Assembly (NCBI GenBank): GCA_964013405.1
Contig: CAXGWI010000006.1
Coordinates: 2,893-66,892, forward strand
Direction of reading: 5' to 3'
DNA from: an uncultured Myxococcales bacterium
GTDB lineage: Bacteria; Myxococcota; UBA4151
DNA: 64,000 nt
The number at the start of each line of letters is the position of its first letter. The stretch's first letter is position 1. Below, in pieces: positions 11,762 to 40,666 of the stretch. The notes beneath the pieces are model-generated. The model was not told the DNA's origin, made no database searches, and saw only the letters and a list, made by a program, of their open reading frames with translations. The translations under genes and the position numbers were made by a program.

Positions 11762-11763
11762 AG

Positions 11764-12984: not shown

Positions 12985-12995
12985 GCGAGGTCGAT

Positions 12996-13418: not shown

Positions 13419-13424
13419 GTCGAG

Positions 13425-16790: not shown

Positions 16791-16793
16791 GCT

Positions 16794-20222: not shown

Positions 20223-22283
20223 TTGGGCATGTCTCGCTGGGTCATCATCAGCCTCCTTCTCGGTGCGTGCACCAGCTATGAGGTTGAAAAGGCGCAAGAT
20301 CCTACCCTTCTCAAAGGGAAAGACCAGGCCCTCACCTTTCTCCACACCTCCGACTGGCATAGCCGCCTCTTCCCCTATCGCTACGACCCCCCGATCCCCC
20401 TACAACGCCATGGCTTGTTGCCGGAAAACGCCCCCTTTGGTGGCGTGGCAAGGCTGACCACACTGGTCAAAAGGGAACGGGCCCAGGCGAGTCGCGTGCT
20501 GCATCTCGATTCCGGTGACTGCTTCCAGGGCGCACCCGTGTTTAACGAGTTCGATGGGGAAGCGGAGTTGCGGGCCTATAATCAGATCGGTCTCGATGGA
20601 GCCGTGATCGGCAACCATGAGTTCGACAAAGGCATGACCAACTTCGTCGACCAGGCGGCCCAGTGGGTCCGCTATCCTTTACTCGCGGCCAACTATCGGG
20701 GCGAGGACATGGCCCGATACGGCAACAAAGCCCTGGCCGATGTGATGCAGCCCTATGCCATCTACAATGTGGACGGCATCCGAGTGGCCGCCATCGGTCT
20801 GGCCAATTATTCCAGCCTGAACTCCCTGGGAGAAGGGGGGAACAGCCTGGGGCTTCACCCACTGGAAATGATCGAAACAACCCAAGCCTATGTGGATCTC
20901 CTCGCCGAGCAGGCCGACCTCATGGTGGTCGTCAGCCATCTGGGGCTCAGCGATGATGTGGAGGTCATCGAGGGCTACCACCGCTGGTACCGTCAAGATC
21001 AATACGACCGCTTGCCGGGCGCCCCATTCCCCCCCTGCGAACTCGCGGACCGCCCCCTACAGAAATGCGAGCGGACCGTGGCGGCCCTGCCCAGCCAACG
21101 GGCCTGCCCAGAAGAGCCCGTCGAAGGACAACTCTGTGGTTTTGAGGCGCCGGACCACCAGGGGGATGTTCAACTCTGGATCCCCGGTGTTCGCGGCGTC
21201 GATTTGATCCTCGGCGGGCACCTCCACTACGTCACCAAGCCGCCCCGCCGAGTGGTGGATCGAGACGGCCGAGTCGTCCCGATCATGCACTCTGGGGCTT
21301 TCATGCAGTTCCTGGCCCGCTTGGATGTGGTCTTGCGGGAAGCCACCCGGATGGACCGGCCCGCCTGGTTTGGCTGGGAGATCGCCAGTTACCGACAAGA
21401 ACTTTTCGCCGTCGACGCCACCGTCGCCAAGGATCCCGAGATGGAGCGCATCATGGAGCGCTACCTGGTGGGCCTGAGCCAACGGCTTCGCCTCGACGAG
21501 CCCGTGGCCTGGAGTCACGTAGAGGTCAATCGCACCAGCCCCACCGGGGGCGACTCTCCCTTGGGCAACTTGGTGGCCGATGCCATTCGCATGCGGAACC
21601 GTGTCCGTACCGACTTTGCGCTCACCAACTCGATGGGAATTCGGGACAACATCCCCCCGGGCTTGGTGACCTTGGAGCAGCTCTTTAATGTTTTCCCCTT
21701 CGAGAACTCCATCGCCACCCTCTTTCTGTCCGGCGTCGAGGTCCAAGAGCTCTTTGACTTCGTCGCCGCTCGCAGCGCCGGGCGCGGTTGCCGCTCCCAA
21801 GCCCAGATTGCCGGTGCGACCTTCACCATGCGCTGTGATTGCTCTGAAACGGTGGTCGACGGCTGCTGCGCTGGGGCTGCCGTGTCGGAAACCGGCGGGA
21901 TGGGTTGCGCCGAGGAGATCATGATCAACGGCAACGCACTCGACTTGGGCGAGAGTTATGAGTTGGCGGCCAACGACTACATCGCATCCGGCGGCTCTGG
22001 CTTCGAAGTCCTCGAACGCAACACCACCCAGTTCGATACGGGGATCTCCCTACGGGATGCGATGGCTGACTATCTGCGCAGCATGCCTGAATGTGATGCC
22101 AGTCAGGTTCCAGCGGACCTGCGTCCCGCTTACGACGAGGCGATGACCCGCTACGGCAGCCTGCGCTGTGTACCCACAGGCGCCAGTTGCGAAGTTGGCG
22201 GGCAGGTCTGCGCCCAGGATACAGACTGCAGCAGCGACGACCGCTGCGTTCAACAACAAGCTCGCATTCTGGCCCGCCAATGA
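20223..22283 (+). CDS. Lipoprotein 5'-nucleotidase / calcineurin-like metallophosphatase with Cys-rich C-terminal extension
   Basis: Lipobox LLLGAC. Metallophosphatase motifs LHTSDWHSRL, GDCFQG, GNHEFD (UshA/5'-NT family). C-terminus has about 12 Cys. Confidence 0.7.
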   Translation: MGMSRWVIISLLLGACTSYEVEKAQDPTLLKGKDQALTFLHTSDWHSRLFPYRYDPPIPLQRHGLLPENAPFGGVARLTTLVKRERAQASRVLHLDSGDCFQGAPVFNEFDGEAELRAYNQIGLDGAVIGNHEFDKGMTNFVDQAAQWVRYPLLAANYRGEDMARYGNKALADVMQPYAIYNVDGIRVAAIGLANYSSLNSLGEGGNSLGLHPLEMIETTQAYVDLLAEQADLMVVVSHLGLSDDVEVIEGYHRWYRQDQYDRLPGAPFPPCELADRPLQKCERTVAALPSQRACPEEPVEGQLCGFEAPDHQGDVQLWIPGVRGVDLILGGHLHYVTKPPRRVVDRDGRVVPIMHSGAFMQFLARLDVVLREATRMDRPAWFGWEIASYRQELFAVDATVAKDPEMERIMERYLVGLSQRLRLDEPVAWSHVEVNRTSPTGGDSPLGNLVADAIRMRNRVRTDFALTNSMGIRDNIPPGLVTLEQLFNVFPFENSIATLFLSGVEVQELFDFVAARSAGRGCRSQAQIAGATFTMRCDCSETVVDGCCAGAAVSETGGMGCAEEIMINGNALDLGESYELAANDYIASGGSGFEVLERNTTQFDTGISLRDAMADYLRSMPECDASQVPADLRPAYDEAMTRYGSLRCVPTGASCEVGGQVCAQDTDCSSDDRCVQQQARILARQ

Positions 22284-23548
22284 GATCCTTACTGCCCCTC
22301 ATCGCAGTGATCGGCTGCTATGAAGCGATCGAGGTCGAGCCGACAAGTCCGGAGCTCGTCTCCACGTTTCAACTCACGGTGACCGGGGACACTGAGGATC
22401 TCGAAGATCGACCTCGGCTGGAATTTGGTGGGGATGATAGCCGCACGGTGAATCTGTCCATCCAGGCCTTTCAGCCCGACGGCAGCCCAAGCACAGAGGA
22501 CTGGGAGGTGGCGGTGACCACCTCCGCCCCCTGCGTCCAGTTAGAGAACACGGAGACGGGTCAGTTCGGCCAAGAGATCAAGGCAACCCTCAGTGCAGGC
22601 ACGGCCGACCTAGCCCTCCAACTCCACCATATCCCCGGACCTCTGGAGCTATGGGTCACCTCCAAAGCCCGGACAGAAGGCGGCTTCGCTGCCGCCATTT
22701 CAACCACCCTCAACTATCGAAATCCGAGCATCCTTGCGCTCCAGTTGCTGCCCGTCGAGCGCTGTGAAGGACTTGAGGGCCGGGAGTTATCCAACTGCCA
22801 ACGCAATCGTATCGCCCATGCAGCCCTCGAGGGTTGTGCCATCGAGATCGATCCCGGTGCAGGCCTGGTGGTCACTCGGGTCGCAGGGGACGGATTCAAC
22901 GTCACCGAACGGGGTCGCCCGGTCCAAGATAACTCCCTCTTCGTCTACACCTATAACGCCCCTGATGAGGTCTTCTTAGGGGCGATACTCGACCATCTCG
23001 AAGGCAACGCCACCGAATTCATGGGCGGCACCCAACTGGCGGACACCAGCTATACGCTGCGCCGGGATGACGACGGCAATGCGCTGGGTCTGAGCGTGGA
23101 GCAATTGGGCGAAGAGTTCCCGGCCACAGAGTTGACGGCCGAGGACCTCAACCGCAGCCCGAGCGGCAATCAACGCTGTCGGCGCATCAACCGCGACATC
23201 CCACTCAATCTCTCGATGGAGCGTCTCGAAGGCGGCCCTGTCTTCATCGCCGGCGCCGAGGTAGCCTACGAACCAGACGATTACTCGCTGAGTTCCTATC
23301 TCCAGTATGGGCAGTTCAATATCGCCCTCGGACAAGGGGGGGACAGTCGCTGCATTAGCCTGATGGCCCGCAATGTCATGCCCGAATTTGACCCCCGCTT
23401 GCCCGGCTGCAGCGGCCAGTCCATCCCCTATATTGAGGGTACCCTTCGAGGCCTCTTCTTCGAGGGCAGCTCGACGCCCGCCTGGGTTGTCGAAGCCTAC
23501 CAGCTCGTTGTCGAGCGCCCCTCTCCCTGTTTGTTGGAGTCCCCATGA
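22280..23548 (+). CDS. Hypothetical lipoprotein
   Basis: ATG 22280 overlaps upstream TGA. Lipobox LIAVIGCYEA. No recognisable catalytic motif. Confidence 0.4.
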   Translation: MRSLLPLIAVIGCYEAIEVEPTSPELVSTFQLTVTGDTEDLEDRPRLEFGGDDSRTVNLSIQAFQPDGSPSTEDWEVAVTTSAPCVQLENTETGQFGQEIKATLSAGTADLALQLHHIPGPLELWVTSKARTEGGFAAAISTTLNYRNPSILALQLLPVERCEGLEGRELSNCQRNRIAHAALEGCAIEIDPGAGLVVTRVAGDGFNVTERGRPVQDNSLFVYTYNAPDEVFLGAILDHLEGNATEFMGGTQLADTSYTLRRDDDGNALGLSVEQLGEEFPATELTAEDLNRSPSGNQRCRRINRDIPLNLSMERLEGGPVFIAGAEVAYEPDDYSLSSYLQYGQFNIALGQGGDSRCISLMARNVMPEFDPRLPGCSGQSIPYIEGTLRGLFFEGSSTPAWVVEAYQLVVERPSPCLLESP

Positions 23549-25251
23549 ACTCTGTGTTGAGCCTCTTTCTGGTCACGCCGATTCTCTTTCCCTCGGTCAG
23601 TACCTCGCCGGTCAACGGCAGTATCGTCGTCGAGGTCGTTAAAGACGAAGAAAGCGAAAAGGCGGCCCCCGACCATCGGCGAGGGGGAGAGACACCTCGC
23701 TCAGTGGAGGGAACCAGTGGCCGTTTTCTCGACACTCGCCTGACCTTCAGTTGGGGCGACGACAACCTTTTTGCAGGACCAGGCCAAACCAATCCCAACT
23801 CGCCCCGCCCGGACTTTGGTGAACGGCAGGGCGACGAGCAGTTCTTCGACAATCTGAACTCTCGAGACACGGGCGATGAGACCCGCTCCACGCTGGTGAT
23901 TCATCGGGCCGATCTGGGCAGCCATATCCCCCGCCTACTCACCGAAGGCGCGCTGGTTGCCCGCTTTGATCTCTATGCTGACGCCGACACGGGTAAGCAG
24001 GGCCAGCTCTTCAAGGACGACGGTAGCTTCCTGGGCCTGCGTTACTATCTTCGAGACACCGGCAACTGTACGGCAATGCAACTCCTTGCTCGGACCGAGG
24101 GCTGTGATCTCGCCTTTGCCTACATCACCGCCTTTCCCTTCGACACCAATCGCTTTCGGGTTGGCTACACCTATGATTTATCCTGGGGGGACCCGCGAAT
24201 TTTTCCGGGTCGCTCCAAAGCGGTTCCCGGGATCAAGTTAGGCCTGCGCCAAAACCGTTGGAGCCTTTGGGCCGGCGCCAAAAGCGCCCGTCTTCTCGAT
24301 GAAGAGGTCAATGAGATCGAAGCCCGTTACGGCTATCTTGCGGGCGGCTCCCTGTCGCCGGCGAAAGTCGTCACACTGCAGGCAAGTGGGGGGCATTTCG
24401 ACATGGGGACAAACCCAAACCCGGCGGTCCGCGGTCAACCCCTGGCCACCTGGGGCTATTCGGCTCGGGCCGTCTACCACCTGGGGACATCCGCTGGCTC
24501 GTCAGCGGACTTTGCCCTGATGCGAGACAACCCGCTGCACCGGATCGGTGGCTACCGCTATCGCCAAGATCACAGCGGCCAATCCTTCCGAGTGGCCCTA
24601 GAGACCAGTCAGCTCATCCAACTGCTTGAGGACCCAGACCGGGCGGGCCAACTCTCGGAACAGCGATCGGTGGCCTATGCGCTGACCGCCACGGTCCGCT
24701 TAGGTCGGCTGTATTTAGACGGCTTTGCCTTCCACCGGGATCTGGGCTTTCTCCTCCGTAACGTGCCCAGCTTTGTCCCCTTCCAGGCCCTTGCGGGGGC
24801 CGCAGACGGCCGACCAGAACGTTTTCTCGCCATGGGAGCCGCCTACGCGCTGCCAAAGAGCCGGCTCACCCCAACCTTGATGCTTGGTATTCAAGATCCC
24901 GCCCAAATGATCGGTGGTATCCCTGAACGTCTCAGAAGCATCGGCGAGGCTGATCTGCCGGATGCTGGTGGTCGCCGGGCCGTGGTCGTGCGGGGTGAAG
25001 GTGACTTCGATATCCTTCCCCTCAACAGCGCCGGCGAGGTGATCAATCCGGTGCCGATTCTCGCCGCCCGCATCGCCCTGCGCTGGGACCTCTCCAAACT
25101 GATGCAGACCACTTTCGAAGTGAACTACACCCACGACGAGAACCAGACGGACCTGGTGGATGGTGGCCGAGGCATCTCAGAGCGGGTTTTTATCGATCGG
25201 CAACTGCGGCAGCGGGTGGGCGTGGGCGTGATTACCCAAATGCGCTTCTAG
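23545..25251 (+). CDS. Hypothetical secreted protein, probable outer-membrane beta-barrel (C-terminal ...QMRF)
   Basis: N-terminal signal peptide. Alternating hydrophobic pattern. Terminal aromatic Phe. ATGA overlap with upstream gene. Confidence 0.4.
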   Translation: MNSVLSLFLVTPILFPSVSTSPVNGSIVVEVVKDEESEKAAPDHRRGGETPRSVEGTSGRFLDTRLTFSWGDDNLFAGPGQTNPNSPRPDFGERQGDEQFFDNLNSRDTGDETRSTLVIHRADLGSHIPRLLTEGALVARFDLYADADTGKQGQLFKDDGSFLGLRYYLRDTGNCTAMQLLARTEGCDLAFAYITAFPFDTNRFRVGYTYDLSWGDPRIFPGRSKAVPGIKLGLRQNRWSLWAGAKSARLLDEEVNEIEARYGYLAGGSLSPAKVVTLQASGGHFDMGTNPNPAVRGQPLATWGYSARAVYHLGTSAGSSADFALMRDNPLHRIGGYRYRQDHSGQSFRVALETSQLIQLLEDPDRAGQLSEQRSVAYALTATVRLGRLYLDGFAFHRDLGFLLRNVPSFVPFQALAGAADGRPERFLAMGAAYALPKSRLTPTLMLGIQDPAQMIGGIPERLRSIGEADLPDAGGRRAVVVRGEGDFDILPLNSAGEVINPVPILAARIALRWDLSKLMQTTFEVNYTHDENQTDLVDGGRGISERVFIDRQLRQRVGVGVITQMRF

Positions 25252-25787
25252 GGTCCCCAGATTCCCAAGCCCTCTTGGCGGGCGGCCGCTTCGGCCTCCT
25301 CATAGGCAAACTGTCGATCAAAGCGCTCGCCGCGAACCCGATAGACTTCGGCCAGGCCCAATCGCAGCAACTCTTCGTTGAGATCCGATCCATCGGCGAG
25401 GCGAAGATAGCAGAGCAAGCGACCAAAACCATCCCGACAAGCGTCGCTGCTCAAGGGGTTCGAGCCACAAGCTCGGTCAAACTCCAGACCCACTTCGCTG
25501 CCGACCCTTCCTTGAGCGTGGGCTTTCGCTGCCTCCGCAAAGGGTTCGGCTGGATCCCCTCGCCGCCCGAACTCCGGCGTGTCGATCCCCTTGAGGCGCA
25601 GTCGGTCAGCGCCAGCCTCCGTCTCGACTTCTAGGGTATCGCCGTCCACCACCCGCAGCACGGTGGCCGGATCCCGAAAACGCAGCGGCTCTGAGCCGAC
25701 ATCGCCCCCAGTGCCGGCATCAGCCGGAGACAACTCGGCCGCGGCCGAACAGCCGAGCAAAGACAACAGGAGAAGTAAGCGACTCAT
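25248..25787 (-). CDS. Thermonuclease (staphylococcal nuclease, SNase) family lipoprotein
   Basis: Lipobox SLLGCSAA. SNase core TVLRVVDGDTLEVE...RLRLKGIDTPEF. Confidence 0.65.
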   Translation of the reverse strand: MSRLLLLLSLLGCSAAAELSPADAGTGGDVGSEPLRFRDPATVLRVVDGDTLEVETEAGADRLRLKGIDTPEFGRRGDPAEPFAEAAKAHAQGRVGSEVGLEFDRACGSNPLSSDACRDGFGRLLCYLRLADGSDLNEELLRLGLAEVYRVRGERFDRQFAYEEAEAAARQEGLGIWGP

Positions 25788-29500: not shown

Positions 29501-30212
29501 AGAGATGCTTCGCCGCATCGTCGATGAGGGACTGCTGCAGGCCCAGGCAGTCTACGGCCTGTTTCCTGCAGCCCGCCGGGGCGATGACATTCAACTCTTC
29601 GATCCCGAATCCGGGGCTGAAACCATGTTGATCCCCTGTTTACGGCAACAACGGGGGCGGAAAAACGCCAACAACCTCTGCCTGGCCGATTTCGTTGCTG
29701 AAACCGAGGATTTCGTCGGTTGCTTTGCTGTGACAGCGGGCCATGGACTGGACGCGATCGTCGCAGCCTATGAAGCCGATGACGACGACTATTCCGCCAT
29801 TTTGGCGAAGGCCCTTGCGGACCGACTTGCGGAGGCCTTCGCTGAACGTTTGCACTTTCAAATCCGCACGGAGGACTGGGGCTATAGCGATGAGGTCTTC
29901 GACAACGAGGCCCTCATCAAAGAGACCTACCGGGGCATTCGCCCGGCGCCGGGCTATCCAGCCTGCCCCGATCATTCCGTCAAACCGGCCCTTTTCGAAT
30001 TTCTCGGCGCCGACGAAATCGGCATGAGCCTGTCGGAAAACCACGCCATGTTGCCGGCAGCTAGCGTCAGCGGTTTCTACTTCGGCCACGCCGACAGCCG
30101 TTATTTTGGCCTGGGGCTCATCACCGAAGAGCAGGCTAAGGACTATGCTGAGCGTCGGGCCATGACCTTAGCCGACGTCCGCCGCTGGCTCCAACCAAGC
30201 CTTGCGGACTAA
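26598..30212 (+). CDS. metH: Cobalamin-dependent methionine synthase
   Basis: 1204 aa. Homocysteine-binding and pterin-binding regions. B12 cap and binding motif [11 protein letters not shown]. AdoMet-binding C-terminal domain. Confidence 0.9.
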
Positions 30213-31423
30213 GGGGCGAGTAACTCGTCAATCTTCGCCTTAAAGTGCTCGAACGGCAGCGCACCGGCGACCTTGTGTCCATTCAGGAAGAAGTTGGGTG
30301 TGCCCCGAGCCCCTACGCGGGCCGCTTCTGCCTTGTCCCCATCGACCTTGGCTCGAATCGCTGGTGATTTCACATCCATACGCCATTGGGCCAGATCGAG
30401 GCCAGACACCCGGCCCGCAAGGGTCTCGATTAAATCCGGGTTCAATTGCCGCGAATGCTCAAACAAAAGATCGTGCATGGGCCAAAAGTAACCTTGAACC
30501 CCCGCGGCCTCTGCGGCCCTCGCCGCTAAGTCCGCATGGGCATGAAAGCTCAAGGGTAGGTGGCGAAAGACCAACTGGACCTGATCTGGGTAGGCTTCTA
30601 GGACCTGCTCCATCACCGCCGCCGCACGCACACAAAACGGGCATTGAAAGTCGCTGAACGAGACGATGGTGACCTGGGGCGCCTTGGCGCCGAGGGCCAT
30701 CGCTCCCTCCCGATGCCGAATCTCCACCGGTCCTTCCGGCTCCGGTGGCGGCCGACGGCGGGCCGGCTTCGCCTCGACTTCTTTGCGGGCCCCATCAGCG
30801 GTCAGCCGATCATAGAGTCCCGCACGCTGGCCCCCATAGTGAAGGTCGACGAGGGCCCGTCCCAAGGCCTCCTTGACCGCCTCCTCGAAGCGCTCATAGG
30901 GCTGGGCCCCAGACATTTTCCGGCCGTTGATGAAGAAGCCCGGTGTCCCCCGAGCCCCCCGGCTCACCGCCTGCTGCTGCTGGGCCTCGATCCGCTTCTT
31001 GAGCGCTGGACTTTCCATGTCCCGCTGGAAGCGGCCTAGATCCAAATTGAGTTCGGCGGCTAAGCGTAAAAAGAGTTCCTCCCCCAAGTCTCCTTGCTCC
31101 TCAAAAAGGCGGTCATGCATGGGCCAGAACTGCCCCTGAAGCCGGGCTGCCTCGGCCGCTAAGGCGGCCGGCATCGCTTGTTTGTGAAAGGCGAGGGGGT
31201 TGTGGAAGAAGACGACGCGCAGGTCAGCAGCCATCGGGCTCTTCAGGAGTTTTTTGAGCGTCCCATCAGCCCGCTTGCAAAACGGACATTGAAACTCGCT
31301 GACGACCACAAGGGTGACCAGGGCATCGCTGGGTCCAATGCTGGGCTCATCAGCGACCGGGAAGTGGTAAACCACTGGATTGGCGCTGGCGAAGACCAAC
31401 AGCGTGCCGAGTAGATAGGACAT
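30209..31423 (-). CDS. Secreted protein with two tandem DsbA-like thioredoxin-fold modules (each with CPFC)
   Basis: Two about 190-aa repeats, each with a CPFC active site and FHNPL/FRHLPL + FWPMHD motifs. N-terminal hydrophobic anchor. Confidence 0.6.
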
Positions 31424-31461
31424 GAGAAAACTCCCGGTGATCTAAGGGGGCATCACCCCAG

Positions 31462-31495
31462 GAAAAACAAAAGACCCCCGGCTTCCCAGGGGTCT
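31462..31495 (-). terminator. Rho-independent terminator after the 3-module dsbA-like gene
   Basis: On the minus strand, stem AGACCCC/GGGGTCT with 10-nt loop followed by TTTTGTTTTT. Confidence 0.6.
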
Positions 31496-31529
31496 CTCGT
31501 TAAGCTTGCTATGGGGACTGACGAAGCAA

Positions 31530-33548
31530 TCAGCCACCCTTCTTCTTCAGAGCCGCATCAATCTTCGCTTTGAAGGTCTCAAAGGGAAGCGCACCGGCGA
31601 TATGTTCACCGTTGATGTAGAAGTTGGGCGTCCCGCGAGTTCCGGTCCGGGTGGCTTCGGCCTTGTCCGCGGCCACCTTGTCCTTCACCGCCTTGGACTC
31701 CCGATCCTTCTCCCACTGGGCGAAGTTCAATCCCTTGATGCCCTTGGCGAGTTCGTCGATCTTCTCCGGGCTCAGCTGCCGATAGTTGGCAAAGAGTGCA
31801 TCATGCATCTCCCAGAACTTGCCCTGGTTGTTGGCGGCCTGGGCTGCCCGAGCAGCCAACTCTGCATTCTTGTGGAAGGAGAGGGGCAGGTGCTTAAAGA
31901 CGAAGCGAACCTTGTTTCCATAGGCCTTCTTGATCTGCTCGACGACCCGTGCCCCCTTTTCACAGAAGGGGCATTCGAAGTCGCTGAACTCGTAAATTGT
32001 GACCGCAGCGTTTTTGGGGCCGAAGCCCACATCCATGGGGTGATTCTTGACCTTGACCGGGCCCTTGGGCTTGGGCGGTGCGCCAGCGGGTCCGCCGCCA
32101 CCGACACTCTTGCCTGCTTCGGCTTTCGCCACCGCAGCGGCGGCCTTGGCGAGGGGCGTCCCCTTCTTGATCTCCGCATCAACCTTCTTTAGCTCCGCAT
32201 CGATGATGGTCTTGAAGCTTGCGAAGGGCATGGCGCCCCGCACGGGCACACCATTGACATAGAAGTTGGGGGTTCCCCGGGCACCGATCTTCATGCCTTC
32301 AGCCTGTTGAGCTTTCACTAAAGTCTTGAGGGCCGGGTCCGCCATGTCCTTCTTGAAGCGGCCCATATCCAAGCCGATCTTCTTCGCAATGGCGTCGTAG
32401 CGAGCCTGGTTCAGGCCGCCCCGAGGGGTCTTGAAGAGCTCGTCGTGCATGGGGAAGAATTTGCCCTGCCGGCCGGCCGCTTCGGCGGCAATAGCTGCTG
32501 CCTCAGCGTTCTTGTGAAAGCCAAGGGGGTTGTGCCGGTACTCGAAGTACACGTCTTTGGGGTAGTTCTTCATGATCTCTTCGACGACCTGGGCACCGCG
32601 GGTGCAGTAGGGGCATTCGAAGTCGCTCCACTCGATGAGGTGGATCTTTGCAGGCCAGGCGCCTTTACCCCGAGGGGCTTTGGCGCTAGCCGTGAGGTTG
32701 ATCCGCTTTTCCGCCGGGCGGCTGGGCCGCTTCGGCTGGGCTTTGGGATCGAATTTATTCTTCGCCCGCACCCGCTGCGTGGCGCCGTTCTTGATCAACT
32801 CGTTGTAGATATTCTCTGGTGCGACGCCCTTGGCCTGCTGAATCTTCGCCAGGGTCAGACCCACCTCAACGAGTTCTTCGAACTTCGCCAAGGGCTGGGC
32901 ACCGCTGAGCTTGCGTCCATTGATGAAGAAGCTCGGGGTACCACCGGCACCCAACTTACGGGCCAGGGCTTGCTGGTCCTTGATCTTCTTCTTCAAGCCC
33001 TCGTCTTTCATGTCGGCTTGGAACTTGGCCTTATCCAGGCCCAGTTCTTCCGCATACTTCTCGAGATCGGGGAGCTTCAGGGCTTTCTGGTTGGCGAAGA
33101 GCTTGTCGTGCATCTCCCAGAACTTGCCTTGATTGCCCGCAGCTTCAGCGGCCAGCGCCGCGTTCATGGCGTTTTTGTGGAAGCTCAGCGGATTGTGGAA
33201 GAAGGCAACTCGGATGTCCTTGCCATACTTACCCGTGGTCAGGTCCTTGATGGTGGGCCCAACCTTAGAGCAGAAGGGGCATTCAAAGTCGCTGATCTCA
33301 ATAATCGTGACCAGCGCATCCTTGGGACCTTTAACCCGGGCTTCACCCAACTCAACCTTGTAGACCGGCTCATCGTTTGAGCAGGCCTTAACCAGCGGGC
33401 TGTCGCAGGCGTCAGCGCTCTTCCCGGCGGCTACAGTGTCAGCCCCTGACGACCCCCTGTTCAACTGCGTGCCAACAAAAACACCCAGGCCCGCGGCCAC
33501 CAACAGACTAAAAATCTTGAGGCCGAAGCCGCTACTATCTTGCTGCAT
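31530..33548 (-). CDS. Secreted protein with three tandem DsbA-like thioredoxin-fold modules (CPFC, CPYC, CPFC)
   Basis: Three about 200-aa repeats with CxxC plus FHNPL / FWEMHD-type motifs. Signal/anchor LLVAAGLGVFVG. Confidence 0.6.
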   Translation of the reverse strand: MQQDSSGFGLKIFSLLVAAGLGVFVGTQLNRGSSGADTVAAGKSADACDSPLVKACSNDEPVYKVELGEARVKGPKDALVTIIEISDFECPFCSKVGPTIKDLTTGKYGKDIRVAFFHNPLSFHKNAMNAALAAEAAGNQGKFWEMHDKLFANQKALKLPDLEKYAEELGLDKAKFQADMKDEGLKKKIKDQQALARKLGAGGTPSFFINGRKLSGAQPLAKFEELVEVGLTLAKIQQAKGVAPENIYNELIKNGATQRVRAKNKFDPKAQPKRPSRPAEKRINLTASAKAPRGKGAWPAKIHLIEWSDFECPYCTRGAQVVEEIMKNYPKDVYFEYRHNPLGFHKNAEAAAIAAEAAGRQGKFFPMHDELFKTPRGGLNQARYDAIAKKIGLDMGRFKKDMADPALKTLVKAQQAEGMKIGARGTPNFYVNGVPVRGAMPFASFKTIIDAELKKVDAEIKKGTPLAKAAAAVAKAEAGKSVGGGGPAGAPPKPKGPVKVKNHPMDVGFGPKNAAVTIYEFSDFECPFCEKGARVVEQIKKAYGNKVRFVFKHLPLSFHKNAELAARAAQAANNQGKFWEMHDALFANYRQLSPEKIDELAKGIKGLNFAQWEKDRESKAVKDKVAADKAEATRTGTRGTPNFYINGEHIAGALPFETFKAKIDAALKKKGG

Positions 33549-33687
33549 TCATTCACTCCAAAGAATCAAAGCCGACGCCTGCTCGCGCAAGGCGGGCGGC
33601 GCTCCATAAGGAGAGGGTGGGCTTGGGTCAACCGGAACCGCCGTTGGCAGCAGGTATTCCGGACCGAAAGCCGGGCTCGAAAACCGA

Positions 33688-34767
33688 TTACTGGAGCAGC
33701 TCGGCGTAGACGTCCAAGTGCTCGACGGCGACCAGCACCCCTTGAACCACCGCATGCAGCGGGTTTTCGGCCCGCCGCACGGGCAGCCCGTGGGTGACCT
33801 CGTGGAGGTGGTCATCAAGGCCCAAGAGGTTCGACCCTCCTCCCGCAAGCAGGATGCCGTGCTCGATCAGATCGGCGGCCAACTCGGGTGGCGTGTCCTC
33901 GAGGACGCTTTTTACCGCACCGTCGATGTCTTCGACACAGCCGCTGATCGCATCGCGAATCTCCGCGCTGGTCACGGTGATGCTACGGGGCACACCGGCC
34001 CGGATGTGCCGCCCCCGGACATCGATCTCGAGCTCCTGGGACAGAGGATGGGCGCTGCCGATCTTCATCTTGATCTTCTCGGCGGTGGACAGGCCGATCA
34101 TGATTTCATGGCCCTCTCGGATCGCCTGCTGAATCGCGACATCCAAGGCATCCCCGGCCACCCGCAACGTTTTGTACGCAGCCATGGCCCCTAAGCTGAT
34201 GACCGCCACATCCGTGGTGCCGCCGCCGATGTCGACGATCATGCTCCCCCGTGGCTCATTGACGGGCAATCCAGCCCCGATGGCCGCGGCCATCGGCTGT
34301 TCGATGAGGTGGACCTCCTTCACGCCGGCTTTGAGCGCTGCATCGCGCACCGCCTTCGTCTCCACCTGGGTGATGCCGGCCGGCACGGAGATGAGGATCC
34401 GGCTTCTCAGCGGTACCCGGCCCGTGGCCTTACGGATGAAGTGCCGAATCATCTCCTCGGTCACATCAACGTCGGAGATCACGCCCTCACGCATGGGGCG
34501 AATGGCCTGAATCGTCGATGGTGTGCGGCCGAGCATCTCTTTGGCTTCTCGGCCGACGGCCACAACCTGGGTCGGTCGAGCCCCCTTGCGGATCGCCACC
34601 ACACTCGGCTCGTCGAGTACGATCCCCTGTCCACGCACGGCCACCACCGTATTGGCGGTGCCAAGGTCGATGGCGAGATCAGTGGTAAACGGGAATCCCC
34701 ACCAGGCCAAAGGCTCGATCCTCCAGAAGTCCAGCCGCCAATTCGAAGACCGGAGCCCTCCTGTCAA
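33688..34767 (-). CDS. mreB: Rod-shape determining actin homologue
   Basis: DLAIDLGTANTVVAV...ISVPAG...IDIGGGTTDVAVISLG phosphate/adenosine motifs. True start probably downstream of the listed one (non-ATG). Confidence 0.85.
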   Translation of the reverse strand: MTGGLRSSNWRLDFWRIEPLAWWGFPFTTDLAIDLGTANTVVAVRGQGIVLDEPSVVAIRKGARPTQVVAVGREAKEMLGRTPSTIQAIRPMREGVISDVDVTEEMIRHFIRKATGRVPLRSRILISVPAGITQVETKAVRDAALKAGVKEVHLIEQPMAAAIGAGLPVNEPRGSMIVDIGGGTTDVAVISLGAMAAYKTLRVAGDALDVAIQQAIREGHEIMIGLSTAEKIKMKIGSAHPLSQELEIDVRGRHIRAGVPRSITVTSAEIRDAISGCVEDIDGAVKSVLEDTPPELAADLIEHGILLAGGGSNLLGLDDHLHEVTHGLPVRRAENPLHAVVQGVLVAVEHLDVYAELLQ

Positions 34768-34808
34768 CGACCCATTGGGAAATGTCTAAAGCCTAGCGTA
34801 GGAGATAG

Positions 34809-35468
34809 GTGAGAAAACCCATGCCGAATCCTTGGAAAGAGTGGATTGAGCGGGCCCAGGATCTGGGTTTTACAGAAGCACCTTCACGCTCCCCTGAACA
34901 GATGGCGAGAGCATCCGATTCAAGGCCAGAGCGAACACAGCATCGCGCTGCACAGCCCCCCCTTGAACCTAAACCTGTAGGGTTCCTGTCCCACATCTCG
35001 GGTCAGGGTGACCCGAACTCCGACTTGGTCATTATCGTAGCCCCGGACCCATCCGACCCCCATGGCGACCCACTGAGTGAGCCCGCTGATCTGTTACTGA
35101 CAGCGATGATCGAAAAAGGTCTCAACGTAGCACGAAGTTCGATCTATATTATCCAACTCACTGATCCTCATGCCTCGAAGCTTACAGGCTCGATGGCCAG
35201 CACAGAGGTTGTGGCGACCCAAGAGCTTCAGAACCACGTCGTCAAACTACACCCGAAAGCGATTCTAACGCTGGGAATCAAGGCCTTAGATTATGTACAG
35301 CCTGGTTCAGATAATATCCATCAGCGACGAGGCCAGTGGTTTGACTACCAAGGTACCCCGACCCTCCCAACCCATCATCCGAGCTACCTTTTGAGACAGC
35401 CAGAAGAAAAACGTGCCGCTTGGCAAGATCTGCAGGCATTGATCCTTCATCTGGGGTGGTCTCGATGA
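34809..35468 (+). CDS. Uracil-DNA glycosylase superfamily (family 4/5-like) protein with non-canonical motif A
   Basis: C-terminal HPSYLLRQPEEKRAAWQDL (UDG family 4 motif B). G.PL..PADLLLTAM matches motif 2. GEAPG position reads IVAPDPSDP. Gene lies in a conspicuously lower-GC stretch. Confidence 0.5.
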   Translation: MRKPMPNPWKEWIERAQDLGFTEAPSRSPEQMARASDSRPERTQHRAAQPPLEPKPVGFLSHISGQGDPNSDLVIIVAPDPSDPHGDPLSEPADLLLTAMIEKGLNVARSSIYIIQLTDPHASKLTGSMASTEVVATQELQNHVVKLHPKAILTLGIKALDYVQPGSDNIHQRRGQWFDYQGTPTLPTHHPSYLLRQPEEKRAAWQDLQALILHLGWSR

Positions 35469-36193
35469 TCCTTCTCTTCTCGCTCATGTTGGCCAACCCC
35501 GTCGACGGCCCGACTCGAACACAAATTCAGGTGGAGGCCCTCGGCCAACCAGATCATCGGGGGGAACTGCAGGCCGAACTGGCTCGGGTGCGCAGTGAAC
35601 TGGCTGAGCTGCAGGCTGTGGTGGCCGCCATGCCCGATGGCCCGACAAAGGATCAGGAATTGGCCCGCCTGCAGGAATTCGAGTCGCTCACCCAGCGCCT
35701 AAATCAGCGCATCGCTGAATTGCCAACAGCGAGTTCCCCCCCTGAGGCCTCGAAGCCCCCCATCAAGGTGACGCCCATCGAGATCGTGCCAAAAGACGGG
35801 TCACCGGCTCGCCCCCCCCTGCTGTTTCTTGGACTCGGCCTGCTGCTCGGCGTCCTGCTGGCTGCCCTGGCCTGGCCGCGCATGCTCGACCCCAGTCAGG
35901 CGCCTCATGCCCCTCCAGGCCCCGGTCGACTGGTCGTCACCGCCGGCATTTTAGGGGCCCTTGGCCTGAGTCTTCCCAGCCTAGGATACGCCCAAGATCC
36001 CATCTTGTTCTTGTGGATGGCCCTCTCCGCTGGCCTGCTTATTCGTCTCTCGGGTCTTTCCCTTGGTTCCCAGATGCAGCGGTTTCTGCTAGATCGCAGC
36101 CGCCCTTTGAAGAGGTCCCATGAGCAATCAAGACCAACTGGTTCAAGCGATCACCCAGGAAGTGGAGAAGCGCCTGCAGGCGATGAGGCCTGA
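35465..36193 (+). CDS. Hypothetical membrane/Pro-rich protein (weak call)
   Basis: ORF with hydrophobic segments and coiled-coil-like region. Overlaps deoC extension. Could be partly artefactual. Confidence 0.25.
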   Translation: MILLFSLMLANPVDGPTRTQIQVEALGQPDHRGELQAELARVRSELAELQAVVAAMPDGPTKDQELARLQEFESLTQRLNQRIAELPTASSPPEASKPPIKVTPIEIVPKDGSPARPPLLFLGLGLLLGVLLAALAWPRMLDPSQAPHAPPGPGRLVVTAGILGALGLSLPSLGYAQDPILFLWMALSAGLLIRLSGLSLGSQMQRFLLDRSRPLKRSHEQSRPTGSSDHPGSGEAPAGDEA

Positions 36194-36962
36194 GGCCGAA
36201 TCCAAACGCAGTTGGCATCAGGAGGATGCGGCCCTACGGAATCGCCGCCAGCGCCCCCTCCCCAAGGTCAGCCCTGCAGCCAGTGCGGGCACGGATGGCA
36301 AGCAATACGCCAAATTGATCGACCACACCCTGTTGAAGCCCGAGGCCAGTGAACAGCAGTTGGCTAAAGTCTGCCAAGAAGCCCGGGAGCACGGCTTCTA
36401 CTCGGTCTGTGTGAACTCCTGCAATGTCCGCTTCGTGGCCAAGCAACTGGCCGGATGTGACACACTGCCCATCGCTGTTGTCGGCTTCCCGCTGGGGGCC
36501 CAGCGCCCAGATGCGAAGGCCTATGAAGCTCGGCAGGCCATCCGGGACGGGGCCCAAGAAATCGATATGGTCGTCAACTTGGGGGCACTGAAGTCCAAAA
36601 ACTATGCCCTCGTGCTCGAAGATATTCGCGCCGTCGTGGAGGCCAGTGCGCCATTGCCAGTCAAGGTGATCTTAGAGACCGCCCAACTCGACGAAGAAGA
36701 AAAAGTGATCGTCTGCGCGCTGACCAGTGCGGCGAGAGCGGCATTCGTGAAAACCAGTACGGGCTTTAGCACGGGTGGTGCCACCATCGACGATGTGAGC
36801 TTAATGCGGCGGGTCGTCGGTGGCGAGATGGGCGTCAAAGCCAGTGGTGGCGTGCGCAATGCCGCCGATGCCGCGGCTATGGTCGCAGCCGGTGCGACTC
36901 GCCTCGGCTGCAGCAGTTCGGTAGCCGTGGTCACCGGCGGTACAGCCAGCGGAAACTACTGA
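36120..36962 (+). CDS. deoC: Deoxyribose-phosphate aldolase with about 65-aa N-terminal extension (start uncertain: ATG 36120 or ATG 36183)
   Basis: KLIDHTLLKP...FYSVCVN...VVGFPLGA...KVILE...VKTSTGF...KASGGV catalytic-Lys region typical of DeoC. Confidence 0.8.
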   Translation: MSNQDQLVQAITQEVEKRLQAMRPEAESKRSWHQEDAALRNRRQRPLPKVSPAASAGTDGKQYAKLIDHTLLKPEASEQQLAKVCQEAREHGFYSVCVNSCNVRFVAKQLAGCDTLPIAVVGFPLGAQRPDAKAYEARQAIRDGAQEIDMVVNLGALKSKNYALVLEDIRAVVEASAPLPVKVILETAQLDEEEKVIVCALTSAARAAFVKTSTGFSTGGATIDDVSLMRRVVGGEMGVKASGGVRNAADAAAMVAAGATRLGCSSSVAVVTGGTASGNY

Positions 36963-36964
36963 GC

Positions 36965-38266
36965 ATGGATGTCCGCAGTCTGATTCAGCAAAAACGGGAT
37001 GGTGCTGCGCTGAGCGAAGCGCAGATTCAGAGCATTATCGATGCTTATGTCCGGGGCACCATGGCCGACTACCAAATGAGCGCTTTGGCCATGGCCATCT
37101 TTTACCAGGGCCTCAACGACGACGAACTCCAGGCTTGGACCACGGCCATGGTGAACTCGGGGGTGCGCCTCAAGATGGCCTCGGTACCTGGGGCCAAGGT
37201 GGATAAACACTCCACAGGTGGGGTGGGCGACAAGATGAGCATTCCCCTCGCCCCCTTGGTGGCAGCTTGTGGCGCCCAGGTCCCTATGATCAGTGGGCGA
37301 GGGCTCGGACTCACCGGTGGGACGCTGGATAAACTCGAAAGCATCCCTGGTTTTCAAACCCGCCTCGAAGAGGCCGACTTTGAACGGGCGGTGGCTGAGA
37401 ATGGTTGTGCCATCGTGGGTCAAACCGATGATCTCGTGCCCGCCGACCGAAAACTGTATGCCCTGCGAGACGTCACCGGCACCGTCGCCTGTGAGCCGCT
37501 GATCGTCAGCTCGATCCTCAGCAAAAAGGTAGCCGAAGGCATCGACTCCCTCATTCTCGATGTCAAATGTGGCTCCGGTGCGTTCATGAAAGAGATCAGC
37601 GCAGCCCGAAGCCTGGCCACTCGATTGGTCGCCACGGCAAAAGGGCAGGGCCTGCAATGCGGCGCCCTGATCACCGACATGAACCAGCCCATTGGGACCA
37701 TGGTCGGGAACGCCCTGGAGATTCGCGAAAGTATCGCCCTCCTCAAAGGGGAAGGCCCCCAAGACAGTTGGAACCTCATCCTTGAACTGGGAAGCCGCAT
37801 GCTGGTCTACGCTCGGGAGGCCCGCAGCATCGATGATGGCAAGGAACTTCTTGAGAGCGCCCAGCGACGGGGAAGAGCCCTGGCCCGCTTCGAGGAGATG
37901 ATCGAGATTCAAGGGGGAAACCCGGCGATCATCGACAATCCGGACCTCTTACCCACCGCCAACGCACGGGTTGAGGTCAAAGCCGAGCGAGATGGACTCC
38001 TGGCCGCCTGGAACGCAACCGATGTGGCCCGGGCCGCCTCCGTGCTTGGCGCGGGCCGGCAGAAGGTCGAGGACCAAGTCGATCCCGCAGTCGGCGTCGA
38101 GCTGCTTGTGGAACCGGGGCAAAAGATTGGCTCGGGCGATGTGCTTGCCCTGCTGCACGTGAACGACAAAGGCCGTGCGGAAGCCGAAGCATTGGTACGA
38201 CAAGCGGCTCAATTCGAAGGCCCGGTCCAACTGCGCAAAGACCGAGTTCTGGACTGGATCGAGTGA
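36965..38266 (+). CDS. deoA: Thymidine / pyrimidine-nucleoside phosphorylase
   Basis: KHSTGGVGDK and SGRGLGLTGGTLDKLESIPGF motifs. Confidence 0.85.
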   Translation: MDVRSLIQQKRDGAALSEAQIQSIIDAYVRGTMADYQMSALAMAIFYQGLNDDELQAWTTAMVNSGVRLKMASVPGAKVDKHSTGGVGDKMSIPLAPLVAACGAQVPMISGRGLGLTGGTLDKLESIPGFQTRLEEADFERAVAENGCAIVGQTDDLVPADRKLYALRDVTGTVACEPLIVSSILSKKVAEGIDSLILDVKCGSGAFMKEISAARSLATRLVATAKGQGLQCGALITDMNQPIGTMVGNALEIRESIALLKGEGPQDSWNLILELGSRMLVYAREARSIDDGKELLESAQRRGRALARFEEMIEIQGGNPAIIDNPDLLPTANARVEVKAERDGLLAAWNATDVARAASVLGAGRQKVEDQVDPAVGVELLVEPGQKIGSGDVLALLHVNDKGRAEAEALVRQAAQFEGPVQLRKDRVLDWIE

Positions 38267-39750
38267 ACCTCCTCTTTGCGGCGCTGATGCTTGCTGCCCC
38301 CCCTGAGGCTGCCTCACCCCCGCCCCTTCCCGCTCCCAGCCAGGTCCTCAACCTGAAGGTCGAGTTGCGTAAACTCCACCGAGTCGCCAGCGGCGAAAGC
38401 AGTACCAGCACGCCAGTCCCCGTGGCCACCGACCCCTGGCGGCGGGCCGTGAGCGGGATGGGACTCCTGGTCATGATCGGCTTGGCCTGGCTCATCAGCA
38501 CCAAGCGCCGATCCGTCGATTGGCGCCTTGTGGCGGTGGGCGCAGCCCTGCAAGTCGTCTTCGGTCTCATCGTGTTAAAAACGAGCGGTGGTGAGTGGTT
38601 TTTTAGTCAACTCAACGACGCCGTGAACAGCTTTCTCTCCTACTCGACAGAAGGCGCTCGTTTTCTCTTCGGTAACCTCGTGCAGAACAACATCCCCACG
38701 GGAACCCCGGTGGCCGACCCGACCATGGGCCCGGTTTTAGACTTCAATCAAACCGGCTGGGCCAATGCGGGGGCCTATTTCGCCTTTGGCGTGCTGCCCA
38801 CCTTGATCTTCTTTTCCAGCGTCATGGGCGTCCTCTACCACCTCGGTGTCATGCAGAAACTGGTGGGCTGGGTCGCCTGGGTGATGCGCAAAACCCTGCG
38901 TACCAGTGGTGCAGAGAGCTTGTCGGCCGGCGGCAACATCTTCCTTGGACAAACCGAAAGCCCTCTGCTGATTCGCCCCTATGTCTCGAAGATGACCGAG
39001 AGCGAGTTGATGGCTGTCATGGTCGGTGGCTTCGCCACGGTCGCCGGGGGCGTCATGGGAGCCTTCGTCCTCATGCTGCGGGGCTACTTTCCAGACATCG
39101 CTGGTCACTTGATCGCCGCTTCGGTCATGAGTGCTCCCGCAGCCTTGGTGATGGCGAAAATCATGGTTCCAGAAACCGGCCAGCCTCTGACCCAGGAGGG
39201 GGTTGAGCATAAGTTTGACAAAGAGAGTGTCAACGTCATCGATGCGGCCGCTCGGGGCGCCGGCGATGGACTGATGCTGGCCCTCAATGTGGGCGCGATG
39301 TTGATCGCCTTCGTCGCCCTTGTCGCCATGATGAATGCGGGCTTTGTGGCCCTGGGCGACACCTTCGGCATGGACCAACCGCTCACCATGGAGCGTATTC
39401 TCGGCTGGATACTCGCCCCCCTCGCTTGGGTCATGGGCTGCGACTGGGCCGACGCCAGTTTTGTCGGCAGCCAACTGGGCGTCAAAACCGTGGTGAATGA
39501 ATTTGTCGCCTACCTCAACTTGGCCGGAAACATGGCCAGCGATCAGCCGATCTCGGGACGCTCCGCGGTCATCCTGACCTATGCCCTTTGCGGTTTCGCC
39601 AACTTCAGCTCCATCGCCATTCAAATCGGTGGGATCGGCGCCATCGCACCGGAACGCCGCAGCGACCTCGCCCGCCTGGGATTACGAGCGATGATCGGCG
39701 GCAACTTGGCAGCTTTTATGACCGCCTGTGTCGTGGGGATGATCCTCTAG
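38263..39750 (+). CDS. nupC: Concentrative nucleoside transporter (NupC/CNT family)
   Basis: Polytopic membrane protein in deo operon. CNT-like hairpin regions. Translational coupling with deoA. Confidence 0.7.
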   Translation: MNLLFAALMLAAPPEAASPPPLPAPSQVLNLKVELRKLHRVASGESSTSTPVPVATDPWRRAVSGMGLLVMIGLAWLISTKRRSVDWRLVAVGAALQVVFGLIVLKTSGGEWFFSQLNDAVNSFLSYSTEGARFLFGNLVQNNIPTGTPVADPTMGPVLDFNQTGWANAGAYFAFGVLPTLIFFSSVMGVLYHLGVMQKLVGWVAWVMRKTLRTSGAESLSAGGNIFLGQTESPLLIRPYVSKMTESELMAVMVGGFATVAGGVMGAFVLMLRGYFPDIAGHLIAASVMSAPAALVMAKIMVPETGQPLTQEGVEHKFDKESVNVIDAAARGAGDGLMLALNVGAMLIAFVALVAMMNAGFVALGDTFGMDQPLTMERILGWILAPLAWVMGCDWADASFVGSQLGVKTVVNEFVAYLNLAGNMASDQPISGRSAVILTYALCGFANFSSIAIQIGGIGAIAPERRSDLARLGLRAMIGGNLAAFMTACVVGMIL

Positions 39751-39817
39751 ACTGAACAATCTGTGCAATTGGGCCGACCCATTGCTCTAAGGAAAGAGAT
39801 CCTTAAGGGAGAAGCCT

Positions 39818-40666
39818 ATGACCAGCCCGGCAGAGATTCTGAGTCTCGTGGAGGCGGCGGCGACCCAGATCCGACAGCGGAGTTCGATCGCACCCAAGGT
39901 GGCGCTGGTGCTCGGGAGCGGACTGAATATTCTTGAAGAAGGCGTCGATGGCGACCGCATCCCATATAGCGACCTGCCGGGCTTCCATGTGCCCACCGTC
40001 TCCGGCCACAGTGGTCAGTTGGTCCTGGCCAACCTCAACGCAGTGCCAGTGATGATATTTTCCGGCCGGCCCCATCTCTACGAAGGCACCGAGCCCTGGC
40101 GCCTCGGCCTCCTTCCCCGGCTCGCAAAAGCCATGGGAGCGACGGCTTTTCTCGTCACCAATGCCGCCGGTGGTATCCCCGGCAAAGGGGTGCAGACCGG
40201 CGATCTCATGCGCATCACTGATCACATTAATCTCCAGGGTAGAAACCCCCTGATCGGTCCCCACGACGATCAGCTCGGTGCTCGCTTTCCCGATATGGGA
40301 AGGGCCTACCACCGAAAGGGTGGGGAGCTCCTCGATGAACTTGCGGCCACCGCCGGCATCGGACTCAAAAAGGGCGTCTATGTGGGCGTCTTGGGCCCTT
40401 CTTATGAAACCCCTGCGGAAGTGCGCATGTATGGGCAGATGGGCGGACACGCGATCGGCATGAGCACGGTGGGCGAAGTGACGGTGGCGAATCAGGTGGG
40501 ACTGTGCGTGGCCGGCATCTCCTGTATTTCAAACATCGCTGGCGGTAACGATGGCACCGACGTGCTCAGTCATGCAGAGGTCAAAGATGCGGTCGCCGCG
40601 GCTGGCAATGACATTCGCCGCCTGATCCGAGACGCTCTGCCGGGCCTAAGCCAACTGGCGCCCTAA
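39818..40666 (+). CDS. punA: Purine nucleoside phosphorylase (PNP-I/PunA family)
   Basis: VLGSGLN...HSGQLVLANLNAVPVMIFSGRPHLYEG...GGHAIGMSTV motifs of the PNP/MTAP family 2. Confidence 0.75.
   Translation: MTSPAEILSLVEAAATQIRQRSSIAPKVALVLGSGLNILEEGVDGDRIPYSDLPGFHVPTVSGHSGQLVLANLNAVPVMIFSGRPHLYEGTEPWRLGLLPRLAKAMGATAFLVTNAAGGIPGKGVQTGDLMRITDHINLQGRNPLIGPHDDQLGARFPDMGRAYHRKGGELLDELAATAGIGLKKGVYVGVLGPSYETPAEVRMYGQMGGHAIGMSTVGEVTVANQVGLCVAGISCISNIAGGNDGTDVLSHAEVKDAVAAAGNDIRRLIRDALPGLSQLAP

Follow-up and report, generated by a model that had tools for sequence, protein, structure and literature searches.

The stretch of DNA analyzed here (64,000 nucleotides; hereafter the window), from an uncultured Myxococcales bacterium (GenBank assembly GCA_964013405.1, contig CAXGWI010000006.1), contains two adjacent minus-strand genes, A and B, which encode two and three tandem modules of the DsbA/Thioredoxin_4 family, respectively, all five with an intact CxxC active site. 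The two genes are old paralogs and belong to a large, generically annotated family of Myxococcota proteins, in which this architecture is itself ancient and usual. We propose, with a probability of roughly 60%, that B, anchored in the membrane, and A, probably soluble, are multi-site periplasmic thiol-disulfide oxidoreductases acting mainly in the oxidative direction, with possible reshuffling activity of the kind known from protein disulfide isomerase (PDI); a membrane partner whose gene lies outside the window would recharge them. The locus comprises the following features:

31530..33548, minus strand: gene B, a Lys-rich, 672-residue, three-module DsbA-family protein with a predicted N-terminal membrane helix
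33462..33527, minus strand: hydrophobic helix of B, residues 8-29, probable signal anchor (a helix in the AlphaFold2 model; no lipobox)
32850..33353, minus strand: module B1, residues 66-233; CPFC at 90-93 (nucleotides 33270-33281), GTP loop at 203-205
32184..32687, minus strand: module B2, residues 288-455; CPYC at 312-315 (nucleotides 32604-32615), GTP loop at 425-427
31542..32045, minus strand: module B3, residues 502-669; CPFC at 526-529 (nucleotides 31962-31973), GTP loop at 639-641
31461..31501, minus strand: intrinsic-terminator-like hairpin between B and A, core GAGACCCCUGG-GAAG-CCGGGGGUCUU followed by a U-run
30209..31423, minus strand: gene A, a 404-residue, two-module DsbA-family paralog of near-neutral charge
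31382..31423, minus strand: hydrophobic N-terminus of A, residues 1-14, putative signal peptide (ASA motif, no Lys or Arg)
30857..31360, minus strand: module A1, residues 22-189; CPFC at 46-49 (nucleotides 31277-31288), nearest to B1 (52%)
30212..30715, minus strand: module A2, residues 237-404; CPFC at 261-264 (nucleotides 30632-30643), nearest to B3 (55%)

The two open reading frames (ORFs) match exactly the extents that a sequence-only reading of this DNA had given for two adjacent proteins with five CxxC-bearing DsbA-like modules, and the interpretation of that reading at the domain level is correct. Searches against Pfam recovered Thioredoxin_4 (PF13462; E = 1.9e-71, 240 bits) and DSBA (PF01323; E = 7.6e-61, 205.7 bits) in three stretches each of B, and the same two families in two stretches each of A (E = 1.3e-45, 155.9 bits and E = 9.1e-45, 153.2 bits, respectively); both proteins pass the cut-offs of 23.2 bits for Thioredoxin_4 and 25.6 bits for DSBA, and the matches are far above chance. 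The active sites are C46PFC and C261PFC in A and C90PFC, C312PYC and C526PFC in B. All five modules also contain a G-T-P loop where, judging from the sequence, the cis-Pro is expected. The motifs FHNPL and FWxMHD, which had been described downstream of each CxxC, are present in every module in degenerate form, as xH(N/L)PL (one per module: FHNPL, RHLPL, FHNPL, RHNPL and KHLPL) and as F(W/F)xMHD. The module size of 190-200 residues given earlier holds only approximately; the measured repeat period is 214-222 residues (642-688 nucleotides), of which the folded core accounts for about 168 and linker for the remainder. In an alignment of B with its homologs (101 sequences), C90, T204 and P205 of module B1, C312, P313, C315, T426 and P427 of module B2, and C526, P527, C529 and P641 of module B3 are invariant.

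For B, AlphaFold2 was run with 101 homologs and gave a model (mean predicted local distance difference test score (pLDDT) 89.8, predicted TM-score (pTM) 0.58) that places an N-terminal helix at residues 8-29 ahead of a tether of low confidence. Three separate thioredoxin folds come next, interrupted in each case by an inserted helical domain and joined by short, low-confidence linkers at residues ~261-280 and ~481-490. Each module is formed by a beta-alpha-beta unit, four to five helices and a beta-beta-alpha unit at pLDDT >90, and helices begin at residues 91, 313 and 527, directly after the first Cys of each CxxC. A Foldseek search with this model matched DsbA-type structures at TM-scores (TMt) of 0.6-0.86. 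By their profile scores, the position of the CxxC at the start of a helix and the inserted helical domain, the modules are members of the DsbA/Thioredoxin_4 family.

By sequence and by fold, the single modules are closest to the DsbA/TsdA protein of Corynebacterium diphtheriae (4PWO, 4PWP, 7UNN; E ~1e-17, Foldseek E = 7e-10, 28-31% identity, root-mean-square deviation 2.2-3.4 Å), followed by 3GYK, ScsC proteins, BdbD, Wolbachia DsbA and Staphylococcus aureus DsbA. TsdA and the modules have in common the CPFC site, the Thr-Pro loop and the DsbA fold with its helical insert, as well as a membrane tether, which in B is predicted. However, TsdA contains just one catalytic domain, along with an N-terminal extension that is unique to it, whereas B and A fuse three and two full catalytic domains, and in alignments the xH(N/L)PL and F(W/F)xMHD His motifs are not conserved in TsdA. 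The membrane-tethered TsdA is able to replace the essential oxidase MdbA in vivo (PMC9974433), yet the C. diphtheriae DsbA (CdDsbA, 4PWO) has isomerase/reductase activity in vitro (PMC4546943); the redox direction therefore does not follow from sequence alone. The ScsC proteins of Proteus (4XVW), Salmonella (4GXZ) and Caulobacter (7RGV) have the same Thioredoxin_4-type catalytic fold and also combine several active sites in one particle, an arrangement that in ScsC accompanies isomerase activity, but they do so as non-covalent trimers held by an N-terminal helical domain, whereas in A and B the sites are joined by covalent tandem fusion. Using the features of the ScsB-dependent isomerase ScsC of Caulobacter as a guide (PMC3322552), we found neither an ScsC-type N-terminal oligomerization domain nor an EHPE-like motif in A or B, and no DsbD, ScsB or CcdA gene in the window. 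With no EHPE hinge and no scsB or dsbD partner gene in the window, A and B were not assigned to the ScsC-type oligomeric isomerases.

Multi-domain thioredoxin architectures are also known from eukaryotes. PDI combines the catalytic domains a and a', with CGHC sites, with the non-catalytic b and b' domains, all of them plain thioredoxin domains. A and B resemble PDI as single chains with several thioredoxin-fold domains, more than one CxxC site and, in prospect, secretory proteins as clients; unlike in PDIs, which have one to four thioredoxin domains (PMC2757866), every module is of the catalytic type, with a helical insert in a DsbA fold and a CPFC or CPYC site, and there is no non-catalytic module. 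Given the domain type, the CxxC type and the lack of b and b' domains, A and B are not members of the eukaryotic PDI family, and there is no evidence for common descent of the two architectures. Among the solved proteins in the Foldseek list, only the misfold-sensing region of fungal UGGT (for example 5N2J) aligns with the B model over ~600 columns, at 12-14% identity and a low TM-score of 0.2. UGGT is a misfold sensor of the endoplasmic reticulum whose thioredoxin-like (TRXL) domains are non-catalytic. We regard the likeness of B to these tandem domains, termed "DsbA-like domains" in one report (PMC8024514), as an architectural analogy only. Assignment to NCBIfam NF041057, the family of the Rcas_1661 thioredoxin-like (seleno)lipoprotein (~247 residues), was likewise rejected; A and B have no lipobox and are multi-module rather than single-domain proteins, and against the cut-off of 190 bits B reaches 256 only by summing three stretches while A, at 182, falls below it.

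The sequence-only reading had further proposed that the modules arose by recent amplification and that the repeated DNA could mediate recombination and copy-number variation. Both proposals are at odds with the degree of divergence. Measured across 30209-33548, the identity between modules of a pair is 39-55% at the protein level and 51-59% at the DNA level, with third codon positions at saturation (~40% identical); the best pairs are A1-B1 (52%), A2-B3 (55%) and B2-B3 (50%). The longest exact run of DNA common to any two modules is 20 nucleotides, and a repeat search of the locus returned only stretches of 50-100 nucleotides at 60-78% identity. Because of this low identity and the short exact runs, the module repeats are poor substrates for homologous recombination, and recent duplication and recombination could be ruled out. 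Consistent with this, a neighbor-joining tree of 60 modules from 19 proteins (100 bootstraps) groups modules by their position within the protein, in clades common to lineages that are only 57-67% identical. First modules of B-type proteins form a clade excluding A1 in 95/100 bootstraps, last modules of B-type proteins one excluding A2 in 94/100, and middle modules a clade in 100/100, whereas the A modules join the B modules of the window itself in only 0-4/100. A1 is no closer to the first module of one lineage than to that of another (50-54%), and the A modules together are equally distant (50-56%) from the B modules of all lineages, which rules out that A is a fresh tandem copy of the neighboring B. 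Over the same genome pair, the nonsynonymous divergence (dN) of A is about three times that of B (0.131 and 0.046), and this faster evolution may exaggerate the apparent age of A; both genes are under purifying selection (dN/dS, the ratio of nonsynonymous to synonymous divergence, is 0.055 in A and 0.040 in B, at a dS that approaches saturation). As judged from these comparisons, the duplications are old and nothing at the locus is recent, and because of the position-specific clades and its equal distance from all lineages, A is best described as an old paralog built of a "first" and a "last" module, without the middle one.

Multi-module DsbA proteins, which had been thought uncommon, are the standard form in Myxococcota. 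With B as the query, 3,848 of the scored candidates matched at E ≤ 1e-10, and the best 120 of these homologs have three (11 proteins), four (102), five (6) or six (1) modules. The searches with B and A combined yielded 236 metagenome homologs with 820 modules (2-6 per protein), of which 815 retain the CxxC (688 as CPFC, 114 as CPYC), and an N-terminal hydrophobic segment (15-mer) is present in 220 of the 236. With a single module as the query against a library clustered at 50% identity, 2,101 representatives were found at E ≤ 1e-30, and the best 150 of these all have 2-6 modules. When one genome was scanned for each GTDB species, at least 593 confirmed stretches were obtained; locus-level counts here and below rest on the 80 best loci of that scan, almost all labeled Myxococcota, which include the cultured Myxococcus, Corallococcus, Archangium, Hyalangium, Vitiosangium, Nannocystis and Sorangium cellulosum So ce56. 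Genes at these loci encode 2-4 modules, and since about 20 of the 80 loci have two or three adjacent multi-module paralogs (3+2, 4+2, 2+3+2, 3+3 or 3+3+3), the layout of a three-module gene followed by a two-module gene has parallels elsewhere. The known members are annotated as "DsbA family protein" or "thioredoxin domain-containing protein" (for example P0180 of Corallococcus terminator, P0176 of Nannocystis and locus L070 of Sorangium So ce56); like A and B they combine an N-terminal hydrophobic segment with 2-6 catalytic modules in tandem that use CPFC or CPYC, although A and B are only 36-59% identical to the multi-module proteins of named genomes. The number of modules does differ between homologs (2-6), a variation that has built up over deep evolutionary time. 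In the literature on myxobacterial or tandem DsbA proteins, we found only the remark of a 2009 survey of the thioredoxin fold class that some bacterial DsbA-like sequences have two or three DSBA domains (PMC2757866), and no functional study of the multi-module family.

B resides in a conserved housekeeping neighborhood with MreB as its conserved neighbor. The window (~60% GC) is ordered as a type II secretion system (T2SS) cluster (7650-20163), a 5'-nucleotidase lipoprotein (20223-22283) with 18 Cys and a Cys-rich C-terminal tail, a staphylococcal nuclease (SNase), YgjP, MetH, A, B, MreB, a uracil-DNA glycosylase (UDG) and a nucleoside-catabolism set. Among its nearest relatives, which are marine metagenome contigs, L081 (from a Tara Oceans run) has MreB-B, with B 91% identical, and ends after B. 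L082 carries UDG, MreB, B and A and keeps the pair together with its intervening hairpin, at an identity of 92% for B and 79% for A; A orthologs in general are 70-85% identical and of the same length. This pairing of B and A (3+2) beside MreB is specific to the small marine clade of L081 and L082, unlike the arrangement in other Myxococcota. In the next lineage (L083, GCA_040260805.1), where B is 57% identical, a single strand carries T2SS ... MreB-DEAD-B-UDG-DeoC-..., and A is absent from that position; the T2SS genes are found ~6.7 kb upstream, and the 22-kb stretch that was examined does not include the 5'-nucleotidase block. Relative to that lineage (7456-12756, compared with 30209-35468 of the window), the MreB-B block of the window and its clade is inverted with respect to UDG/DeoC, the DEAD helicase is missing, and A and MetH have been gained on the far side of MreB-B. 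A is either clade-specific at this position or has been lost in the sister lineage. The pair is encoded on the opposite strand from the 5'-nucleotidase and the T2SS genes, beyond MetH, and no specific tie connects it to either; a functional link to this cargo, which had been suggested earlier, is unsupported.

No DsbB, VKOR, DsbD, CcdA or TlpA-like gene was detected in the window by a Pfam scan of its 49 ORFs of ≥150 residues, and the redox partner and direction of A and B are thus not fixed by the locus. An HTTM-domain protein (48555-49865, minus strand, 436 residues) was considered as a partner and dismissed, as the hit was weak (E = 9e-7) and not to VKOR; HTTM is the family of vitamin-K-dependent carboxylase, and no link of this protein to the A-B pair was established. 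Among the 80 loci, clustering of neighboring ORFs identified a TlpA-like Redoxin gene as the only meaningful recurrent neighbor, the other clusters being mostly antisense shadow ORFs of high-GC DNA or a Ser/Thr kinase. This gene encodes a membrane-anchored, TlpA/ResA-like thioredoxin with a WCPPC motif (Pfam AhpC-TSA/Redoxin, E = 5e-22; for example L043:10426-11037, L035:10630-11268 and L017:3178-3906), and lies directly 3' of the multi-module gene, on the same strand, at ~22 of the 80 loci, mostly after four-module genes, which suggests that in part of the family the oxidative and reductive pathways of the envelope are coupled.

Both proteins had been described as secreted. The modeled N-terminal helix suggests that B is not freely secreted but probably anchored in the membrane; neither protein has a lipobox. 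The N-terminus of A offers only a short, uncharged putative signal peptide of 14 hydrophobic residues ending in ASA. In the five orthologs of A this segment remains hydrophobic while varying in sequence, and a small-x-small end (ASA, SNA or SSA) is found in four of them (P0124 has TSP); none of the five has a basic residue. On balance, the export of A is likely but not certain. B is strongly basic (isoelectric point (pI) 9.6, net charge +33), whereas A is near neutral, a difference that would fit a division of labor between the membrane surface and the bulk periplasm. The K/(K+R) ratio of B (0.76) is the highest among the 49 ORFs of the window. A foreign origin of B, as might be suspected from its Lys-richness, was ruled out because its GC content at third codon positions (GC3, 0.76) is like that of its neighbors and B-type multi-module proteins are basic and Lys-rich family-wide (pI 9-10). 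Between the membrane helix and the first module, B also contains a CX7C pair (CDSPLVKAC, residues 48-56; 33381-33407, minus strand), which is kept in the close clade of B and not family-wide: 37 of the 236 homologs have a Cys pair there, 11 with CX7C spacing. The pair might form a structural disulfide or act as a relay.

The intergenic region between B and A forms a hairpin with a 16-bp stem, a GAAG loop and a U-run; the surrounding 90 nucleotides fold at -37.8 kcal/mol (z = -3.1). A consensus terminator scan did not detect this hairpin, which was identified by direct folding, and it is kept almost base for base in L082 (~4915-4950). The strong terminator that had been proposed to separate the genes thus has a real and conserved counterpart, which supports separate or attenuated expression of A; that the two genes are transcribed fully independently is not proven, as read-through is possible. 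In addition, A is preceded by a Shine-Dalgarno-like GGGAG 8 nucleotides before its ATG and by an in-frame stop 7 codons upstream of it. At the other end, MetH (plus strand) and A (minus strand) converge with stop codons overlapping by 4 nucleotides (30209-30212), leaving no room for a terminator downstream of A.

We envision A and B as old paralogous oxidoreductases of the cell envelope, in the multi-module format typical of Myxococcota. B would be tethered by its N-terminal helix at the outer face of the inner membrane, with three catalytic DsbA units carried on Pro/Lys/Ala-rich linkers, and A would be a smaller, two-unit form, probably soluble in the periplasm, whose units match the first and last modules of B. 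In each unit, a separate CPFC or CPYC pair would exchange disulfides with the cysteines of exported proteins during folding, most likely with net oxidation, that is, the introduction of disulfides, while the presence of several active sites per chain may also permit PDI-like reshuffling of wrong disulfides. Reoxidation would be provided by a quinone-linked membrane partner of the VKOR or DsbB type encoded elsewhere in the genome. The analysis establishes the domain assignment, the fold, the five intact sites, the old age of the duplications and the conserved, selectively constrained state of both genes; whether the proteins are exported, in which redox direction they act, and on which substrates and with which partner, is inferred. 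Several observations weigh against this proposal: no DsbB, VKOR, DsbD or CcdA gene accompanies the pair in the window, the closest solved homolog also acts as an isomerase/reductase in vitro, the TlpA-like thioredoxin, a component of reductive pathways, that follows multi-module genes hints at a reductive or isomerase role for some members, A has an N-terminus without a basic residue whereas every other N-terminus in the window with a lipobox or secretin-type signal carries one near its start, and we found no experiment in the literature on any member of the multi-module family.

The proteins may instead be disulfide isomerases or reductases of the DsbC, ScsC or PDI-like kind, whose covalently joined units stand in for the dimers or trimers on which the isomerase activity of DsbC and ScsC depends and whose sites are kept reduced through a DsbD/CcdA/ScsB-TlpA route. 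Multivalency is indeed what sets DsbC dimers and ScsC trimers apart from monomeric DsbA, ScsC proteins are among the structural neighbors, many homologs are annotated as "protein-disulfide isomerase" by the Joint Genome Institute (JGI), and the TlpA-like follower, the in vitro activity of CdDsbA and the ScsB-dependent isomerase of Caulobacter described above point the same way. However, the genes of such a reducing route are all missing from the window, the ScsC-type oligomerization domain and hinge are absent from both proteins, TsdA acts as an oxidase in vivo, and the oxidizing DsbA of S. aureus also combines CPYC with a Thr-cisPro. We consider a primarily reductive or isomerizing role unlikely, while still deserving serious attention. 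The relationship to ScsC could also indicate a function in copper or metal stress, in which the CxxC sites bind Cu(I) or repair copper-damaged disulfides: ScsC proteins (4GXZ, 4XVW, 6NEN, 7RGV) are significant neighbors in sequence and structure, and the Caulobacter protein is reported to bind Cu(I) with subpicomolar affinity (PMC8900818). Such a role appears very improbable here, as no scsA, scsB, scsD, cop or cue genes occur next to the A-B pair, ScsC is a less close match (E = 1e-10 to 1e-6) than TsdA and 3GYK (E = 1e-17 to 1e-16), and the conserved neighbor, MreB, is a housekeeping gene.

The uncharged N-terminus bears on a further possibility, that A is a cytoplasmic protein like the FrnE-type DsbA-fold proteins and that only B works in the envelope. 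The consistent hydrophobicity of this segment despite its variable sequence, together with the small-x-small ends, is typical of signal peptides, the modules of A are orthologous in position to modules of B that are predicted to be exported, and FrnE was only a weak hit (E = 9e-5), which together make a cytoplasmic A improbable. Finally, a recent tandem amplification could have raised the folding capacity for nearby Cys-rich T2SS cargo and left repeats that still serve as substrates for recombination and copy-number change, an idea to which the range of 2-6 modules among homologs, a relative with a duplicated middle module (P0005) and the 18 Cys of the neighboring nucleotidase lend some appeal. 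It is already contradicted on timing by the saturated third positions, the low DNA identity with its 20-nucleotide maximum of exact repetition, position-specific clades that predate lineages 57-67% identical and the occurrence of the same 3+2 pair in L082, and the conserved neighbor is MreB rather than the nucleotidase or T2SS genes; we give this explanation next to no credence, and the reading of the locus in terms of recent amplification and copy-number variation should be dropped.

As a typical, well-conserved example of the Myxococcota DsbA-family design, this locus alone adds little. The family as a whole is noteworthy, with thousands of generically annotated proteins carrying 2-6 CxxC-bearing DsbA modules. 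A more speculative reading, which we consider rather doubtful, is that such tandem, all-catalytic DsbA chains with 2-6 sites on flexible linkers constitute a phylum-wide bacterial counterpart of PDI, serving the unusually Cys-rich exported proteome of Myxococcota. In such chains, the membrane-proximal module might be recharged by a quinone-linked oxidase and oxidizing equivalents might then pass from module to module, or, alternatively, multivalent binding might give a single protein both oxidase and isomerase/chaperone activity; the anchored, basic B could serve substrates near the membrane and the soluble, neutral A those of the bulk periplasm. The multi-module family offers a natural test of whether covalent multimerization turns a DsbA-type oxidase into a PDI-like foldase, and its members are candidates for improving the production of disulfide-rich proteins.

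Apart from the A-B pair, the window encodes a nucleic-acid scavenging set (20223-22283, 25248-25787 and 36120-40666), which includes the 5'-nucleotidase and the staphylococcal-nuclease homolog, both lipoproteins, as well as the DeoC aldolase, a thymidine phosphorylase, a Na+/nucleoside transporter and a purine nucleoside phosphorylase (PNP); L083, the sister lineage, has kept the block from DeoC to PNP. Two large plus-strand ORFs between the 5'-nucleotidase and the nuclease have no Pfam match; they encode 453 (22187-23548) and 568 residues (23545-25251), and the first is very Arg-biased (K/(K+R) 0.06) and contains 9 Cys.

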